Below are positions 3,864-10,531 of a stretch of 64,000 nt of DNA, piece by piece. The notes beneath the pieces are model-generated. The model was given only the letters and a program-made list of their open reading frames with translations, was not told where the DNA came from and searched no databases. A program made the position numbers and the translations under genes. This DNA is from Burkholderiales bacterium. Lineage in GTDB: Bacteria; Pseudomonadota; Gammaproteobacteria; Burkholderiales; Casimicrobiaceae. Each line of letters opens with the position of its first letter. The stretch's first letter is position 1. The stretch is from assembly GCA_020853025.1 (NCBI GenBank), contig JADYZP010000009.1, forward strand, positions 86,410-150,409, read 5' to 3'.

Positions 3864-4787
3864 CTAGTGCGCCGGCGGCGCCGGCGCGATCCGGTCGAGC
3901 GCCACGTCCTCGTAGGACGCGGGGTCCTCGCGCGGCTCGAGGTGCGTTTCTATGGTCGTGCCGGGAATTGCCGCGGCGATCTCCAGTTCCAGGCGCTCGA
4001 CCAGATCGTGCCCGCGCTTGACGGTCCAGTTGCCGGGCACCAGCACGTGCATCGACACGAAGGAGCGTCCGGCCGAGACGCGCGTTCGAATCGCGTGAAA
4101 CTCGATGCGGTCGCCGCGATAGCGGTCGAGAATCGCCGCGATACGCTGCATTCGTTCAGGCGGCAATGCCTGGTCCATCAAGCCGGAGGCGCTGCGCCGC
4201 AGCAGGGAGACACCGGTGAAGACGATATTCGCGGCAACCAGCAACGCGATGCTCGGATCGAGCCATGACCAACCGGTGAAACCGACGGCCAGCACGGCGA
4301 CCACAACGCCGACCGAAGTCCACACATCGGTCATCAGGTGCTGCGCGTCGGCTTCCAGCGCGATCGAATCGTGGCGCCGCGCCGCGCCCAGCAGCAACCG
4401 GGCGACGATGAGGTTGATCGCAGTGGCGACGATCGACACCACGACGCCGAGGTCGATCCGCTCGATGGGCTGCGGATGCAGCAGGCGGTCGACGGCCGCC
4501 CAGCCGATAGCGAATGCCGCAACGAGGATCAGAGCACCCTCGAAAGCGCTGGAGAAGTACTCGGCCTTCGAATAGCCGTAGGTGTAGCGCTCGTCCGGAG
4601 GCCTCGCGGACAGATAGAGCAGCCACAAGGTCGCGGCGGCGGCGACCACGTTGACAATCGACTCCAGGGCGTCGGAGAGCATTCCGACCGAGCCGGTGAG
4701 GTGCCAGGCGAGGAGTTTGAGGGAAATCGTGGCGATCGCCGCGACCAGCGAAAGCAGCGCGAAGCGGGTCAGGTGCGTACGGTCCAC
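3864..4787 (-). CDS. Cation diffusion facilitator (FieF-like) transporter
   Basis: GSVGMLSDALES, PPD..YTYGYSKAEY, ADAQHLMTDVWTS and C-terminal THLEP. Start trimmed to GTG 4787. Confidence 0.9.
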   Translation of the reverse strand: MDRTHLTRFALLSLVAAIATISLKLLAWHLTGSVGMLSDALESIVNVVAAAATLWLLYLSARPPDERYTYGYSKAEYFSSAFEGALILVAAFAIGWAAVDRLLHPQPIERIDLGVVVSIVATAINLIVARLLLGAARRHDSIALEADAQHLMTDVWTSVGVVVAVLAVGFTGWSWLDPSIALLVAANIVFTGVSLLRRSASGLMDQALPPERMQRIAAILDRYRGDRIEFHAIRTRVSAGRSFVSMHVLVPGNWTVKRGHDLVERLELEIAAAIPGTTIETHLEPREDPASYEDVALDRIAPAPPAH

Positions 4788-5085
4788 GTGTTTCTTGCCT
4801 TCTCGCAATCTTAACCCGCGCGTCGGAACCGGCTGCCACAGGCCGGTAGAAGCAGGCGCAGGATCATGAAGGAGTTGCCGATGCCCCCGGAACCGACGTG
4901 TGGCATACGCTGTCCATTGCCGCGCTGGAGGAGCGGCTGGCGGCGACCGCATCGGGGCTGACGGCAAGCGAGGCGGCGAGAAGGCTCGCCGAGCGCGGTC
5001 GGAACGAACTCACGGCCAGGCGGCGCGCCGCTCGCGTTCTCGGCAACTGACCGCTACTGCCATTGCGGCTCCGTATAATCCACCC

Positions 5086-5454
5086 GTGACCAAGACCGGC
5101 CTCATCCTGTTCGCGCACGGCGCACGCGATCCGCGCTGGGTGGAACCCTTCGAGAGGTTGAAACTCAAGGTTGGGGCCGCGCGGCCGGACGTGCAGGTCG
5201 CACTGGCGTTCCTCGATATCATGGCGCCGAACCTGCCGACGGCGGCCGATGCGCTGGTTACCGGTGGCTGCCAGGCACTGCGTATCATCCCGGTGTTCCT
5301 GGGGCAGGGCGGGCACGTGCGCGACGACATACCGGCGCTCATTGCCGCCATCGCGGCGCGTCATCCCGCCGTAGCGGTCGAGGTGCTCTGCGCTGTCGGT
5401 GAAGACGACGCCGTGCTGCAGCGGATCGCCGAGGTAAGTGTCGCGGGTCTATGA
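5086..5454 (+). CDS. CbiX/SirB-family sirohydrochlorin chelatase (short form)
   Basis: LILFAHGARDPRW, AFLDIMAP and PVFLGQGGHVRDDIP motifs; GTG start 5086. Confidence 0.85.
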   Translation: MTKTGLILFAHGARDPRWVEPFERLKLKVGAARPDVQVALAFLDIMAPNLPTAADALVTGGCQALRIIPVFLGQGGHVRDDIPALIAAIAARHPAVAVEVLCAVGEDDAVLQRIAEVSVAGL

Positions 5455-6398
5455 TGCACGTCTTTTGACCGGGGTACGAGCCCGCGCACCTCGACGCGCA
5501 CATGGTCGATGAACGCCTTGGCGGCGCACGACAATTGGCGGCCGACCGGGTAGACGAAGTGCCAGTGCCGCTCGAGCGGAAAGCCGATGACGTCGAGCGC
5601 GACCAGCGAATTCCGTTCGGACGCCAGCGACAGCACATCGCGGTGCAGGACTGCGACACCCAGACCCGCGAGCACCGCCTGCCTGATGGCGCCGTCGCTT
5701 TCGACTTCCATGTGCACCTTCGGTGCGAGCCCCGCGCGCTCGAAGAGCCGCAGCGCGGCGTCACGGGTTCCTGAACCCGGCTCGCGCAGCAGCAGCGGCC
5801 GCTGCGCAAGGCGCGCGAGTGGGATGTCGCGCACCTTCGCCAGCGGATCGTCGGCACGGGCGAGCACGACCAGCGGATTGGCGACGATCGCCTGGCGCAC
5901 GATTTCGCGCTCCTCCGGCGGATGCGTGAAGACGTACAGGTCGTCCTCGTTGCCGACGAGGCGTTCGACCAGCTGGCTACGATTCCGAATGCGCAGCACG
6001 ACCTCGATGCTCGGATGCACGCGGCTGAATCCGGCGAGCATGCGCGGGACGAACGATTCGCAGGCACTCCCCGCGGCTACGTGCAGTCGGCCCGTCTCCA
6101 GCACCGAGAGTTCGGACAGCGCGTCGTCCAGACGGCCGAACACGCGGAAGATCTCCTCGCAGTGCGCGTAGGCCCGTCGGCCGGGTTCCGTGAGAAAGAT
6201 CCGCTTGCCGACCTGCTCGAACAGCGGTGTCCCGAGCGTTTCGGTGAGTTTGCCGATTTGCGCCGACACCGTCGGTTGAGCAAGATGCAGTTCCTGCGCG
6301 GCGCGCGTGAAGCTGCCAAGGCGCGCACTGGCCTCGAAAACCGCGAGTTGCGGCAGCGTTCCGTGACGCAGATAGTGGCGGATTCGCGATTGCGGCAT
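5361..6398 (-). CDS. LysR-family regulator, CbbR/CmpR-like
   Basis: HTH 'QLAVFEASARLGSFTRAAQELHLAQPTVSAQI'; 'LLREPGSGTR' in the effector domain; RBS AGGAGAG before ATG 6398. Confidence 0.9.
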   Translation of the reverse strand: MPQSRIRHYLRHGTLPQLAVFEASARLGSFTRAAQELHLAQPTVSAQIGKLTETLGTPLFEQVGKRIFLTEPGRRAYAHCEEIFRVFGRLDDALSELSVLETGRLHVAAGSACESFVPRMLAGFSRVHPSIEVVLRIRNRSQLVERLVGNEDDLYVFTHPPEEREIVRQAIVANPLVVLARADDPLAKVRDIPLARLAQRPLLLREPGSGTRDAALRLFERAGLAPKVHMEVESDGAIRQAVLAGLGVAVLHRDVLSLASERNSLVALDVIGFPLERHWHFVYPVGRQLSCAAKAFIDHVRVEVRGLVPRSKDVHHRPATLTSAIRCSTASSSPTAQSTSTATAG

Positions 6399-6500
6399 GA
6401 CGGACTCTCCTGGCTGACGCCAAGACCGCCCATGCACGATGGCACGACGGCCTTCGCCTGGTTGGCAAAGGCCTCGACATGGCTAGCCTTTGCCGTTCGG

Positions 6501-6615
6501 CAAAGGTCTTGCTGGCGCGAAGCTGCGTTGCGCCGACGCGACCGGGGTCGGATCCGACCCGTATTGACGACCGCGTCGCGGCAGCATTGGCTGCTGCCGC
6601 AGCTACTCCCCTTTG
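6501..6615 (-). ncRNA. yybP-ykoY (Mn2+-sensing) riboswitch aptamer
   Basis: Minus strand reads CAAAGGGGAGUAGCU...GUCGUCAAUAC...GCAAGACCUUUG: the conserved GGGGAGUAG start, the CAAUAC loop motif, the GC(A/G)AGACC end, and a P1 of CAAAGG/CCUUUG. Confidence 0.88.
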
Positions 6616-6662
6616 TACTTCACCCTTTCAGGGATACCCGAAACTCGATCGGGCACGGAGAC

Positions 6663-6691
6663 TGTATAGCACTGGCGGCGGCTCGAAGCAA
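6663..6691 (-). promoter_or_regulatory. Sigma70-like promoter for the riboswitch-lysR transcript
   Basis: Minus strand TTGCTT (6691-6686), 17-nt spacer, TATACA (6668-6663), about 48 nt upstream of the aptamer. Confidence 0.6.
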
Positions 6692-6837
6692 TAGGTATCC
6701 GACTTGGGTGATCCACGGAAGCCAGTCGCGGCATTGGTCGCGTTTCCTGATCGTATGCATCAGCAATTTCGAATATCGCTCTTTCGATTCAGCGTTCATA
6801 CTCGCCCCGCGACTTCCCACCGGCAAACGAGGGCACG

Positions 6838-8109
6838 ATGGATCTCTGGTCGATGCAGTTTCTTTCCGCACTGATGGCGATCATCGTCATCGACCTGGTG
6901 CTGGCCGGAGACAACGCCATCGTCATCGCGCTTGCCGCGCGCAACGTCCCCAGGCATCTGCAGCGGCGCGCCATCGTCTGGGGTACCGTCGGCGCAATCG
7001 TCGTCCGCACGACGATGACGCTGATCGTCGTCTGGCTGCTGAAGGTGCCGGGCCTGCTCTTCGCCGGCGGCGCGTTGCTGATATGGATCGCCTACAAGCT
7101 GCTGCTGCCGGAGGAGGGCGGCGAGTATGGCGACAAGGTCAAGGGCGCCGATAGCTTCTGGGGCGCGATCCGTACCGTCGTCGTCGCGGACACGGTGATG
7201 GGCCTGGACAACGTGCTCGCGGTCGCCGGTGCAGCGCATGGCAACTTTCTGCTCGTTGTTCTCGGCCTGCTGATCAGCATCCCGATCGTCATCTGGGGCA
7301 GCACGCTGCTGTTGCGCTTCGTCGAGCGCTATCCTGCCTTCGTCTATCTTGGCTCCGGCGTACTGGCGTTGACCGCCGTCAAGATGATGACCGCGGAACC
7401 CATGCTGGCAGAGTATTTTTCCGCGCACCGGCCTATCGTTGCGATCCTCTACGTCGTCGTGGTGGTCGGCGTGCTCTGGGCCGGATTCGTCAAGAATCAC
7501 CGCAAGCTCGAATCGAGGATCACCGCGCGCATCGCAAGGTTCTCGCGGCAGAATCCATCCGCAACGCCCGAACCCGAAATCGCTCCCGGAGAAAGCATCA
7601 TGCTCAAGGTCCTGGTTCCCGTCGACCGTTCGCCGAACGCCGTCCATGCACTGCGCCACGTCATCGGCGAGTTTCGCAAGAGCCCCGACTTCGAGGTGCA
7701 CCTCTTAAACGTGCAGGCGCCATTCTCGCGATACGTTTCCCGGTTCGTCGCCAAGAAGGACCGCGACAGCTATCACCGCGAACAGTCCGACAAGGTGCTG
7801 GTGCCGTTGCGCAGGATGCTCGATACCGCGGGCGTTCCGCACGCCGTGCATGTCAAGATCGGCGCCAAGGCGAAAACGATCGCCGACGAGGCGCGGCGCC
7901 TCAAATGCGACCACATCGTGCTCGCCACCGCGCGCAAGAATTCGCTGACGCGGATGGTCGAGGCGTCGGTCACCAACAAAGTGCTCGACCTGACCTCGGT
8001 TCCGGTCGCGGTCGTCGTCGGCGACTCGGTGTCGAAGCTCGAGCGCTACGGCATTCCGGCTGGCATCGGCGCGGCGCTGGGCGCTCTGGCGCTGCTGGCG
8101 ATCGACTAG
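6838..8109 (+). CDS. TerC-family (YjbE subfamily) membrane protein fused in frame to a universal stress protein domain
   Basis: IDLVLAGDNAIVIALAARN and ADTVMGLDNVLAVAGAA (TerC/YjbE); from ATG 7600 MLKVLVPVDRS...DHIVLATARKNSL...SVTNKVL (USP) with a hydrophobic C-terminal tail. Confidence 0.88.
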   Translation: MDLWSMQFLSALMAIIVIDLVLAGDNAIVIALAARNVPRHLQRRAIVWGTVGAIVVRTTMTLIVVWLLKVPGLLFAGGALLIWIAYKLLLPEEGGEYGDKVKGADSFWGAIRTVVVADTVMGLDNVLAVAGAAHGNFLLVVLGLLISIPIVIWGSTLLLRFVERYPAFVYLGSGVLALTAVKMMTAEPMLAEYFSAHRPIVAILYVVVVVGVLWAGFVKNHRKLESRITARIARFSRQNPSATPEPEIAPGESIMLKVLVPVDRSPNAVHALRHVIGEFRKSPDFEVHLLNVQAPFSRYVSRFVAKKDRDSYHREQSDKVLVPLRRMLDTAGVPHAVHVKIGAKAKTIADEARRLKCDHIVLATARKNSLTRMVEASVTNKVLDLTSVPVAVVVGDSVSKLERYGIPAGIGAALGALALLAID

Positions 8110-8957
8110 CGCGAACAGCATCCCGGCGCGCAACACGACGCAGGCTTGGTGGCGCGGATGAACGCACTGACGAACTTGCCATCGATTTCGTTCGCGATGG
8201 CGTCGACATCGAGTCCTTCCGCCGCCAGGAAGGTGTGCGCGTCCTCGACCCCGTAGACGCGCGTGACTTCGACATCGATGCCGGCGAAGCCGGCCTGCAC
8301 CAGCTTGCTTCGGTAGTCGTCTTCGGAAAGCGCGCCGGCGATGCAGCCGACCCAGAGCTCCATGCTCTTCCGGATCGCCGCCGGCACTTCTGCGCGGACG
8401 ACGACATCCGACACAGCCAGCCGTCCTCCGGGCTTGAGAACGCGGAACGCTTCGCGCAGCACCCGGTCCTTGTCCCCCGACAGATTGATCACGCAGTTCG
8501 AGATGATCACGTCCACCGCGCTGTCGGGCAGCGGGATATTCTCGATTTCGCCCTTCAGGAATTCGACGTTGGCCAATCCGCTCTCCCGCTTGTTCTCTTC
8601 GGCCAGCGCCAGCATTTCGTCGGTCATGTCGAGGCCAAAGGCTTTGCCTGTGGGCCCGACACGACGCGCGGACAGGATCACGTCGATGCCGCCGCCTGAT
8701 CCGAGGTCCAGAACCGTCTCGCCCGCCTTCAATTCGGCCAACGCAGTCGGGTTGCCGCAGCCGAGCGACGCCTGCATCGCGGCGTTAGGTACTTCGCCGG
8801 CCTGGCCGGCGTCGTACAGATTGGACGTGATCGGGTCGCAGCAGCTCGCGAGGCTCGGAGCGGTCCCGCAGCAGCGGGACTTGCCGGCTTGAACTTGCGA
8901 CGCGGCCTGTCCGTATTTTCCGCGGACGATTTCCTTCAGATCACTGGTAGTAGACAT
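8106..8957 (-). CDS. arsM: Arsenite S-adenosylmethionine methyltransferase
   Basis: SLGCGNP, VLDLGSGGGID, IISNCVINL and WVGCIAGA; Cys pairs at both termini; in ars operon. Confidence 0.92.
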   Translation of the reverse strand: MSTTSDLKEIVRGKYGQAASQVQAGKSRCCGTAPSLASCCDPITSNLYDAGQAGEVPNAAMQASLGCGNPTALAELKAGETVLDLGSGGGIDVILSARRVGPTGKAFGLDMTDEMLALAEENKRESGLANVEFLKGEIENIPLPDSAVDVIISNCVINLSGDKDRVLREAFRVLKPGGRLAVSDVVVRAEVPAAIRKSMELWVGCIAGALSEDDYRSKLVQAGFAGIDVEVTRVYGVEDAHTFLAAEGLDVDAIANEIDGKFVSAFIRATKPASCCAPGCCSR

Positions 8958-9019
8958 CGATCAATCCTCGATTGGGGAAACGGCGATGGTGCGCACGACT
9001 TCGGCGGCAACCGGCGAAC

Positions 9020-10102
9020 TCACGGGCAAACGTCAGGTGCGTTGAATCCGGCGGCACGTGGTGTCTTGAAATACTTGCGCTGGAAGGCGAGGGCAACGTT
9101 GACCAGCATGATCATCACCGGCACCTCGACCAGCGGGCCGACGACCGCGGCAAACGCCTCGCCCGAGTTGATCCCGAATACCGCCACCGCCACTGCGATT
9201 GCCAGCTCGAAATTGTTGCTTGCCGCGGTGAACGACAGCGTGGTCGTCTTCGAGTAGTCGGCGCCGATGCGACGGCCCAGCCAGAACGACACGAGGAACA
9301 TGAGGACGAAATAGATGACGAGGGGGAGGGCGATGCGCACGACATCGAGAGGAATGCGAACGATGTAGTCGCCCTTCAGCGAGAACATGACGAAAATCGT
9401 GAACAGCAGCGCGATCAGCGTGAGCGGGCTGATCTTCGGCACGAAGCTGCCGTGGTACCACGCCTTGCCCTTGGCCCGCACCAGCACGAAGCGCGTCAAC
9501 GCGCCGGCGAGAAACGGGATGCCGAGATAGATGAACACGCTCCACGCGATGTCCGCAATCGTGATATCGACCTTGAAGGACTGCAGGCCCAGCCACTCGG
9601 GGAGCACCGTCAGGAAGACGTAGGCGTAGATCGAAAAGAACAGCACCTGGAAGATCGAGTTGAACGCCACGAGTCCGGCGGCGTACTCGGTGTCGCCTTT
9701 GGCGAGCTCGTTCCAGACGATGACCATCGCGATGCAGCGGGCGAGCCCGATCAGGATCACGCCGGCCATGTAGTGCGGCTGGTCGCGCAGGAACACGACC
9801 GCCAGCACGAACATCAGCACCGGGCCGATCAGCCAGTTCTGGACCAGCGAGAGCATCAGCACCCGGCCATTGCGGAACACGTCGCCCAAGTCCTCGTAGC
9901 GGACCTTGGCGAAGGGCGGGTACATCATCAGGATCAGGCCCACCGCAATCGGGATGTTCGTGGTGCCGCTCTGGAACCGGCTCCAGAATCCGGCGATCCC
10001 CGGAAGCGCATACCCAACCGCGACCCCAGCGAGCATGGCGAGGAAGATCCACAACGTCAGGTAGCGGTCGAGAAAGCCGAGTTTGCCTGTGGGCGATGTC
10101 AT
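9020..10102 (-). CDS. acr3: ACR3-family arsenite efflux transporter
   Basis: [30 protein letters not shown] and GPLVEVPV motifs. Confidence 0.95.
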
Positions 10103-10156
10103 GGTGCCTTCCGGGTGCGCGCTCAGGTCATCGCTGCGCTGGCGCGTGACAGCGCG

Positions 10157-10531
10157 TCATGCGGATTTCCTCTTGCGCCGAGCCGGCAACGCAACCGCAA
10201 CCGGGTGCGGTGCACCGGCAGGCAGGCATGCGGTATCGCAGGCGGCACTGGCGCGACAGCAATTTTCGGTGAGATAGCCGACCAGGCCATTGATCGTCTC
10301 GAGGTCGGCGCGATACCAGATGAAGCGACCGTCCTGCCGGGAGGTGATGAGTCCGGCGTGCGACAGTTCCTTCAGATGGAACGACAGCGTCGCCGGCGCG
10401 ACCGACAAGCGCTCGGCAATCGCACCGGCGGGCAGGCCTTCGGGCGCGTGTTCGACCAGCAGCCGGAACGCAGCCAAGCGGTGTTCGCGGGAGAGGGCCG
10501 CCAGGGCATCGAGTGCGCGCTTCGTTTTCAT
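10157..10531 (-). CDS. arsR: ArsR/SmtB repressor with C-terminal Cys cluster
   Basis: HTH 'LSVAPATLSFHLKEL' and C-terminal YLTENCC...C...C arsenite-binding type. Confidence 0.92.
   Translation of the reverse strand: MKTKRALDALAALSREHRLAAFRLLVEHAPEGLPAGAIAERLSVAPATLSFHLKELSHAGLITSRQDGRFIWYRADLETINGLVGYLTENCCRASAACDTACLPAGAPHPVAVALPARRKRKSA

Follow-up and report, generated by a model that had tools for sequence, protein, structure and literature searches.

In the 64,000-nucleotide (nt) stretch of DNA analysed here (the window; contig JADYZP010000009.1, positions 86,410 to 150,409, assembly GCA_020853025.1, from a Burkholderiales bacterium of the Casimicrobiaceae), a compact yybP-ykoY (Mn2+) aptamer lies upstream of lysR, a gene for a LysR-type transcriptional regulator (LTTR), and a terC(yjbE)-usp exporter gene faces away from both on the opposite strand. 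Comparative sequence analysis indicates that the aptamer is real and belongs to the lysR leader, and that the module, an operator-like motif between the divergent genes and both sets of alternative pairings in the leader are conserved. The best explanation of the whole, held with fair but far from complete confidence, is a relay that runs from a Mn2+ riboswitch through LysR to terC-usp. This idea had been raised by an earlier model reading of the letters (the sequence-only reading), and it is supported by a sub-threshold match to Rfam family RF00080, by the layout in 34 loci, by an exporter partner in 31 of the 34, and by the confinement of the motif to that intergenic DNA in both exporter groups.

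In the proposed relay, lysR would be transcribed leftwards from the promoter at 6691–6663, and the 5′ leader of its mRNA would hold a functional compact yybP-ykoY aptamer. High Mn2+ would lock helix P1 and keep its 3′ strand, CCUUUGCC, from a downstream competing hairpin, and LysR would be made; at low Mn2+, the start codon (6398) would be buried in a helix and little LysR would be produced. LysR would bind a dyad operator (about 6761–6738) in the 220-nt divergent region and activate the poorly promoted terC(yjbE)-usp gene, and it would probably autoregulate as well. Control of LysR synthesis would be Mn-ON and exerted at translation initiation, possibly coupled to Rho. The metal would be sensed by RNA and the signal relayed to the exporter via a transcription factor. 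LTTRs typically activate the divergent gene, and TerC/YjbE proteins and P-type ATPases of the kind described below belong to the gene classes that are normally under direct yybP-ykoY control.

Layout of the locus

All of the elements on which the sequence-only reading was built are confirmed, with positions that agree exactly or to a few bases. On the minus strand, the promoter of the riboswitch-lysR transcript (6663–6691) has the −35 hexamer TTGCTT (6691–6686), a 17-nt spacer and an extended −10, TGcTATACA (hexamer 6668–6663), which is the TTGCTT-N17-TATACA described earlier with a TG in front of it. A simple promoter scan of the window overlooked it because the −10 ends in A. An equivalent promoter (TTGnnn-N16-18-TAnnnW, usually with TGn) is present in 22 of the 31 related loci, and its distance to the aptamer is conserved. 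A short hairpin near the 5′ end of the leader (about 6653–6637, minus strand) is followed by the aptamer (6499–6617, minus strand), in which P1 pairs C6615–G6610 with C6506–G6501 (CAAAGG/CCUUUG), precisely the 6615–6501 span given for it before. A structured linker of 100 nt then separates the aptamer from the start region of lysR, where a Shine-Dalgarno (SD) sequence, GGAGAG, occupies 6410–6405 and the ATG occupies 6398–6396, 100 nt past the aptamer end, again as previously read.

The lysR gene (5361–6398, minus strand; start MPQSRIRHYLRHG) encodes 345 aa. The protein is an LTTR by its Pfam domains, HTH_1 (PF00126, 5e-20) and LysR_substrate (PF03466, 3e-47). It had been called a CbbR-like LysR; the LysR part of that description stands, and CbbR (NF045990) is its nearest NCBIfam match, below threshold; at 185.8 bits against an equivalog cut-off of 450, a CbbR identity was rejected. 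The GTG at 6437 chosen by the open reading frame (ORF) finder was also rejected as the start, given the MPQ start at 6398, which has an SD and is conserved among orthologues. The C-terminus of the window protein is ~30 aa longer than in most orthologues, and the 3′ end of lysR overlaps convergently, by ~90 nt, the 3′ end of a CbiX-domain gene (5071–5451, plus strand).

On the plus strand, terC(yjbE)-usp (6838–8109), the presumed LysR target, starts 220 nt from the aptamer and encodes a fusion of 423 aa, with Pfam TerC at residues 14–185 and Usp at residues 257–393. Within the fusion, TerC falls into the YjbE subfamily TIGR03717, “R_switched_YjbE” (221.6 bits against a cut-off of 134.8, residues 12–186). 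The gene had been read as a YjbE/TerC gene on the opposite strand with no aptamer in its leader, and neither RF00080 nor the R1 model introduced below finds a second aptamer there.

A compact member of the yybP-ykoY class

By eye, the aptamer core is complete. Besides P1, it contains L1 (GGGGAGTAG, 6611–6603; GGGGAGUAG as RNA), the P2 hairpin, P3 carrying L3 (TCGTCAATAC, 6570–6561; UCGUCAAUAC as RNA), the P4 hairpin, and the 3′ segment AGCAAGACCTTTG with the 3′ end AGCAAGACC. Both L1 (with AGC-AGACC opposite) and L3 (GUCAA/CA...) agree with the Rfam consensus line. At the gathering score of 45 bits, the Rfam 15 model RF00080 has zero matches in the window. A full-length match at 6632–6514 (minus strand) scores 26.1 bits (a search limited to 551 nt gives E 2.7e-5), and the same aptamer is the sole RF00080 match, likewise sub-threshold, across the 3.65-Mb genome (E 4.2e-5). 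An RF00080 search had been proposed with the sequence-only reading as a check of the aptamer; the match exists, and it falls short of the threshold.

This shortfall is common to the group, as the cut-off is reached by none of the 20 LysR-linked aptamers tested, and compact Burkholderiales aptamers score 20–43 bits with Rfam 15. In the Rfam 15 Manganese model, which spans 177 positions, the 5′ P1 strand is unpaired and a long 3′ part resembles a lineage-specific platform. Model positions from about 97 to 177 represent the 3′ extension or expression platform of some relatives and are deleted in the window aptamer, and the low score arises because the last ~80 model positions cover this deleted part. 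The gathering score of RF00080 is a curation cut-off and not a structural feature.

A covariance model, R1, was built from four LysR-linked aptamers in total, that of the window and those of three relatives, and it matches the window at 6617–6499 (minus strand) with 123.5 bits. When 34 LysR-linked aptamers are compared, pairing holds in 98% of cells and compensatory changes are seen at 12 of the 22 pairs, against 4.1 in shuffled and 1–8 in slid controls; P3, for example, reads CGCG, CACG, CATG or CGGT among relatives. The four-way junction, formed by P1 and the P2, P3 and P4 hairpins, is borne out by this covariation, and 34 of 34 relatives keep L1, the CGUCA at the heart of L3 and the 3′ AGACC without change. 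R1 also recovers aptamers that pass Rfam (L002–L007; Rfam 83–112 bits, R1 E 8e-6 to 5e-3), a similarity to accepted members that is reciprocal. As a model specific to LysR-linked aptamers R1 was rejected, given that it recovers transporter-linked compact aptamers too. Since its matches across the order also precede TerC/Alx-like and CitMHS-type transporter genes, the LysR-linked copies are ordinary representatives of the compact form that the class takes in Burkholderiales.

Architecture and core sequence place the window RNA in the yybP-ykoY class despite its sub-cut-off Rfam score. The usual context of the class, directly upstream of a metal transporter gene, is not found here; the downstream gene encodes an LTTR and the transporter gene is divergent. 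Mn2+ is the probable ligand of the window aptamer, and the adenine after GUC in L3 contacts Mn2+ in solved structures (L. lactis).

Recurrence of the module among relatives

A LysR protein search of species-representative genomes yielded 59 loci. A set of 34 loci, which counts the window and three found earlier, was defined by a LysR at least 46% identical over its length and by available upstream sequence. An aptamer is present on the LysR strand in all 34 of these orthologue loci (46–72% identity), with R1 scores of 45–126 bits, and LysR homologues that reach at most 42% identity (from Kangiellaceae, Firmicutes and other groups) are without one. The distance from aptamer end to ATG is ~100 nt (94–119) in 29 loci, 70 nt in one and 15–21 nt in five. 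In 31 of the 34 loci, the divergent gene encodes an exporter, either a TerC-Usp protein (15 loci including the window, 56–87% identical) or a P-type ATPase-Usp protein (16 loci), the latter being a P2-type cation ATPase (Cation_ATPase_N/C) with a C-terminal Usp.

The layout is also met outside this set. In an order-wide sample of 401 evenly drawn genomes from 167 genera, R1-type aptamers occur in 64 genomes and 30 genera, and 40 fetched regions hold 50 aptamers, of which at least 18 precede TerC-family genes, three precede CitMHS-type transporter genes and 14 precede LysR orthologues. With these 14 further cases added to the 34 orthologue loci, the arrangement described by the sequence-only reading is clearly not confined to this genome, and the LysR-linked aptamer is conserved in at least 48 genomes. 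Eight loci (L086, L090, L094, L105, L107, L113, L116 and L118) carry back-to-back twin aptamers 200–350 nt apart, one on the TerC side and one on the LysR side, and such units would amount to a feed-forward layout.

A candidate operator between the divergent genes

LTTRs usually bind DNA at two places, a recognition site that lies upstream and an activation site located at the −35. Across 450 kb of fetched loci, a strict palindrome, ATYRCR-N3-YGYRAT, occurs 19 times, and all 19 occurrences fall within the 7 kb of exporter-to-aptamer intergenic DNA, or 1.6% of the sequence. It is present in 16 of the 31 loci and in both exporter groups (for example, as ATTACGATTCGTAAT among ATPase loci and as ATCGCGAAACGCGAT among TerC loci), beside or over a weak −35 of the exporter promoter; the background in the window’s genome is 14 sites per 3.65 Mb. 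This confinement to the DNA between exporter and aptamer supports the binding of LysR there. A further element, site 1 (GATG-N6-ATY), is found in 25 of the 31 loci at a fixed position, over an apparent weak −35 of the exporter promoter.

In the window, the candidate LysR operator (6738–6761, minus strand; GATGCATACG-ATCAGGAAACGCGA) was delineated by motif comparison. It consists of site 1 in the form GATG-N6-ATC (dyad TGATnnnnnnnATCA; sequence GATGCATACGATC) followed by a degenerate half-palindrome (6761–6738), and the intergenic dyad, TGATGCATACGATCA, together with the degenerate palindrome is a candidate for the T-N11-A-like operator of a divergent LTTR unit. The candidate operator shares sequence with the weak −35 of a putative terC promoter, and its arrangement, as far as motifs can tell, is that of the usual LTTR geometry. 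LysR probably binds at this site.

Alternative pairings in the leader

The direction of the switch is most readily seen in the five short-leader relatives, in which the SD or AUG is the direct pairing partner of the aptamer 3′ strand (AGACCU..., comprising the L1 3′ side and P1). The aptamer 3′ strand was blocked in folding models of these leaders, mimicking a ligand-stabilised P1, and the unpaired probability of the SD-to-AUG region was compared with that in the free leader. It rose from 0.25 to 0.43 in L039, from 0.44 to 0.61 in L055, from 0.38 to 0.56 in L066 and from 0.29 to 0.53 in L035, with no rise in L032 (0.52 free, 0.45 blocked). In these models, four of the five short leaders behave as plain ligand-ON translational switches.

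Long leaders, including that of the window, instead contain a chain of six elements, every one of which is complementary to the elements on either side. In the window (minus strand), these are element 1, the P1 3′ strand (6506–6499); element 2 (GGCAAAGG, 6494–6487); element 3 (GGCCUUUGCC, 6473–6464), which is also complementary to element 2; element 4 (GGCGAAGGCC, 6458–6449); element 5 (GCAUGGGCGG, 6435–6426); and element 6 (CCGUCAUGC, 6403–6395), which includes the AUG. Two mutually exclusive sets of helices can be drawn from them. The OFF set (1:2, 3:4 and 5:6) masks the AUG, is the predicted minimum free energy (MFE) fold, and is 91% paired across 20 leaders. The ON set (2:3 and 4′:5) is 89% paired. 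For comparison with both sets, slid controls give 29–56%.

Individual helices are conserved to a similar degree. In the P1-competitor hairpin (1:2; 6487–6506), CCTTTGCC (6506–6499) pairs with GGCAAAGG in the MFE fold, and this helix is conserved at 89% of cells. The second hairpin (3:4; 6449–6473; GGCCTTTGCC/GGCGAAGGCC), which appears in the RNAalifold consensus, is 95% paired, and the alternative helix 2:3 is 87% paired with three compensatory pairs. The start-codon-masking helix (6395–6435), in which GCATGGGCGG (6435–6426) pairs with CCGTCATGC (6403–6395), is found both in MFE folds and as a consensus helix; it is 87% paired in the 20 leaders, and the SD GGAGAG lies inside it. From the parity of this chain of alternative helices, a Mn-ON response is predicted.

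Other outputs of the leader found less favour. An intrinsic terminator was rejected as the output in the window, where hairpin 1:2 is followed by only 2 U in 8, and is possible in some relatives: a U-run of at least 5 in 8 follows this hairpin in 5 of ~27 relatives, all from the ATPase group, in which it could bring about classical transcription termination. In some ATPase-group loci, and not in the window, hairpin 3:4 is followed by AUUU. A leader peptide translated after the SD-like elements 2 and 4 was rejected in the absence of a conserved frame, as loop insertions and deletions shift the frame.

Points against the relay and competing explanations

Several observations weigh against the relay. 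The window aptamer misses the gathering threshold of the Rfam family for its class, the window’s copy of the palindrome is degenerate, and no divergent exporter was found in 3 of the 34 loci, where other genes occupy that position (L020 and L040) or the upstream sequence is too short (L037). Covariation is weak in the expression-platform helices because these leaders are closely related, and no intrinsic terminator was found in 6300–6950. Equilibrium folding of long leaders with P1 formed does not expose the SD/AUG region (0.35 vs 0.35 on average, 0.17 vs 0.20 in the window), and hairpin 3:4 survives in the P1-formed fold, as does the AUG helix; a forced 2:3 carries a penalty of 4.4 kcal/mol in the window (0.2–13 across leaders), with the AUG still paired here. 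For long leaders, a simple “domino” in which thermodynamics alone unmasks the AUG was rejected, in that neither P1 forcing nor strand blocking changes SD/AUG accessibility, and it is conceivable that such unmasking is instead a kinetic process. In these folding models, the short-leader relatives point clearly to ON; folding does not account for the passage of the signal across the window’s long leader. The favoured reading is an ON-type switch, with translational control possibly reinforced by Rho.

The lack of Mn-dependent AUG unmasking in equilibrium folding of the long leaders could also be taken to favour an inverse logic, in which the riboswitch is OFF, LysR represses the exporter, and Mn2+ lowers LysR and so de-represses terC-usp, with the same physiological outcome; an operator placed over promoter elements is equally compatible with repression. 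This seems improbable, as the aptamer 3′ strand acts as an anti-SD in the short-leader relatives, giving ligand-ON behaviour, and the parity of the conserved alternative helices likewise gives ON. Moreover, no characterised yybP-ykoY switch is known to work in the OFF sense, and the general tendency of LTTRs is to activate the divergent gene. A different objection is that inversion of a former riboswitch-terC unit could have left the aptamer behind as a relic without function. Its score under the Rfam cut-off and the canonical aptamer-to-TerC units of relatives (e.g., L019) are in line with this, and yet at least 48 genomes retain the aptamer, its ligand core invariant and its helices showing compensatory changes even as LysR has diverged to 46% identity, and the promoter and P1-competitor hairpin are conserved as well. 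On this comparative evidence, the relic reading is effectively refuted, and we regard it as very improbable indeed.

Two further alternatives accept a functional riboswitch. The exporter’s adjacency may reflect co-inheritance, with the riboswitch controlling a LysR that governs other genes, a view for which the aptamer-LysR units without a divergent exporter (L020 and L040) and the degenerate window operator can be cited. We give it little credence, considering that two unrelated exporter families share the divergent position in 31 of the 34 loci, and that the same palindrome lies between LysR and these exporters and nowhere else in the 450 kb. It is also unlikely that the ligand is another divalent cation (e.g., Ca2+, Fe2+ or Cd2+) and that the module serves a response of the ATPase or TerC to Ca or another metal. 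TerC/YjbE and these ATPases are established Mn-riboswitch targets, and the L1 and L3 core, including the adenine after GUC, is invariant and fits the Mn consensus. In favour of another metal, the pumps of one partner class are P2-type and of the Ca2+/Mn2+ kind, further metal genes lie nearby (a cation diffusion facilitator (CDF) exporter and an ars cluster), and a review places the riboswitch class under the heading “MnII/CaII-sensing riboswitches” (PMC11672702).

Related units and neighbouring genes

A C-terminal Usp is common to both classes of exporter that face LysR (TerC-Usp, and ATPase-Usp as in L023 and L041). In the canonical aptamer-to-TerC unit L019, the sole one compared over its length, the match is to the TerC part alone. 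Locus L017, from a genome of the same genus (G009), has a compact aptamer directly ahead of a stand-alone usp gene, with a P-type ATPase gene next in line, and it represents a direct-control version of the ATPase-Usp unit. The window’s genome also encodes a second TerC homologue (C9:170315-171391; 39% identical) and a P-type ATPase (C28:99221-101887; 42% identical to the ATPase-group pump), both without an aptamer.

Two same-strand aptamers 1.7–1.8 kb apart are found in L096 (1601–1720 and 3294–3409) and in L097 (1601–1721 and 3422–3538), each preceding an ORF of ~480–510 aa, an arrangement that suggests tandem riboswitch-controlled paralogues. The sole ORF scanned there, L096:54-1496, has no Pfam match, and aptamer-linked ORFs of similar size in L082, L100 and L101 are of the CitMHS type.

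Directly past terC-usp in the window lies an arsenic-type cluster (8109–10531, minus strand), with genes for an ArsM-like S-adenosylmethionine methyltransferase (8109–8957), an ACR3/SBF permease (9023–10102) and an ArsR-like HTH_20 regulator (10160–10531). The CDF cation-efflux gene (3867–4751, minus strand) is located near lysR. The sole Rfam family above threshold in the window is the S-adenosylhomocysteine riboswitch aptamer RF01057 (32308–32395, minus strand; 54.4 bits against a cut-off of 37).

Relation to known systems and implications

Riboswitches are textbook examples of direct, one-step controllers of transport or biosynthesis genes. The window aptamer shares with the known yybP-ykoY riboswitches (E. 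coli mntP and alx, B. subtilis yybP/ykoY, and L. lactis yoaB) the same four-helix aptamer with its L1, GGGGAGUAG, and its L3, CGUCA..., the same alternation of the 3′ P1 strand with a downstream hairpin, and the same end-of-pathway gene families (TerC/YjbE and P-type ATPase). It differs from them in that the downstream gene encodes a transcription factor and the transporter gene lies on the other strand without an aptamer, and in being compact and sub-threshold in Rfam 15, with a multi-hairpin platform and no intrinsic terminator. Classical LTTR divergent units (CbbR-cbb, OxyR and IlvY-ilvC) likewise have an HTH_1 and LysR_substrate protein, a divergent presumed target and, between the two genes, a dyad near a weak −35 (in the window a candidate operator), whereas here the synthesis of the LTTR itself is proposed to be gated by a metal-sensing RNA.

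Riboswitches that set the activity or level of a protein regulator of structural genes are known from the B12 riboswitch/AspocR-PocR system of Listeria and the EutX/EutV system of Enterococcus, which use antisense or sequestering RNAs and sense B12. In contrast, the aptamer described here lies in cis in the leader of the regulator’s own mRNA and would sense a metal ion. Also close are twin-aptamer loci of other Burkholderiales (L086, L090, L094, L107, L113 and L118), which have the same LysR orthologue, LysR-side aptamer and TerC partner as the window. In those loci, TerC keeps its own aptamer and would be under both direct and indirect control, whereas the window, without a TerC-side aptamer, would be a pure relay. 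A non-exhaustive full-text search of the literature found no description of a yybP-ykoY/Mn riboswitch wired to a LysR or other transcription factor and TerC. What sets the window apart from the described cases found is the wiring: the regulator would be under aptamer control, and the exporter gene itself carries no aptamer.

A more far-reaching proposal is possible, though doubtful as a whole. In a broad set of uncultured Burkholderiales, RNA would have assumed the role of metal sensor for a transcription factor. A Mn2+ riboswitch would set the amount of an LTTR, whose effector domain would add a second signal, giving a two-input gate on exporter-Usp genes and possibly on a wider regulon. The pure relay would have arisen when twin-aptamer units lost the aptamer on the transporter side, and the multi-hairpin leader would be an undescribed kind of alternative-helix chain that carries the state of P1 over ~100 nt to the start codon.

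The compact aptamer class is overlooked by the Rfam 15 model (0 of 20), and routine annotation would miss the LysR-linked aptamers since none of those 20 reaches its cut-off; Mn regulons are consequently under-annotated in Burkholderiales-type metagenome-assembled genomes. If the relay is true, it would provide a first handle on metal-responsive LTTRs, and RNA sensors could form the top tier of a regulatory hierarchy, with scope for amplification, delay, signal integration and regulon expansion.

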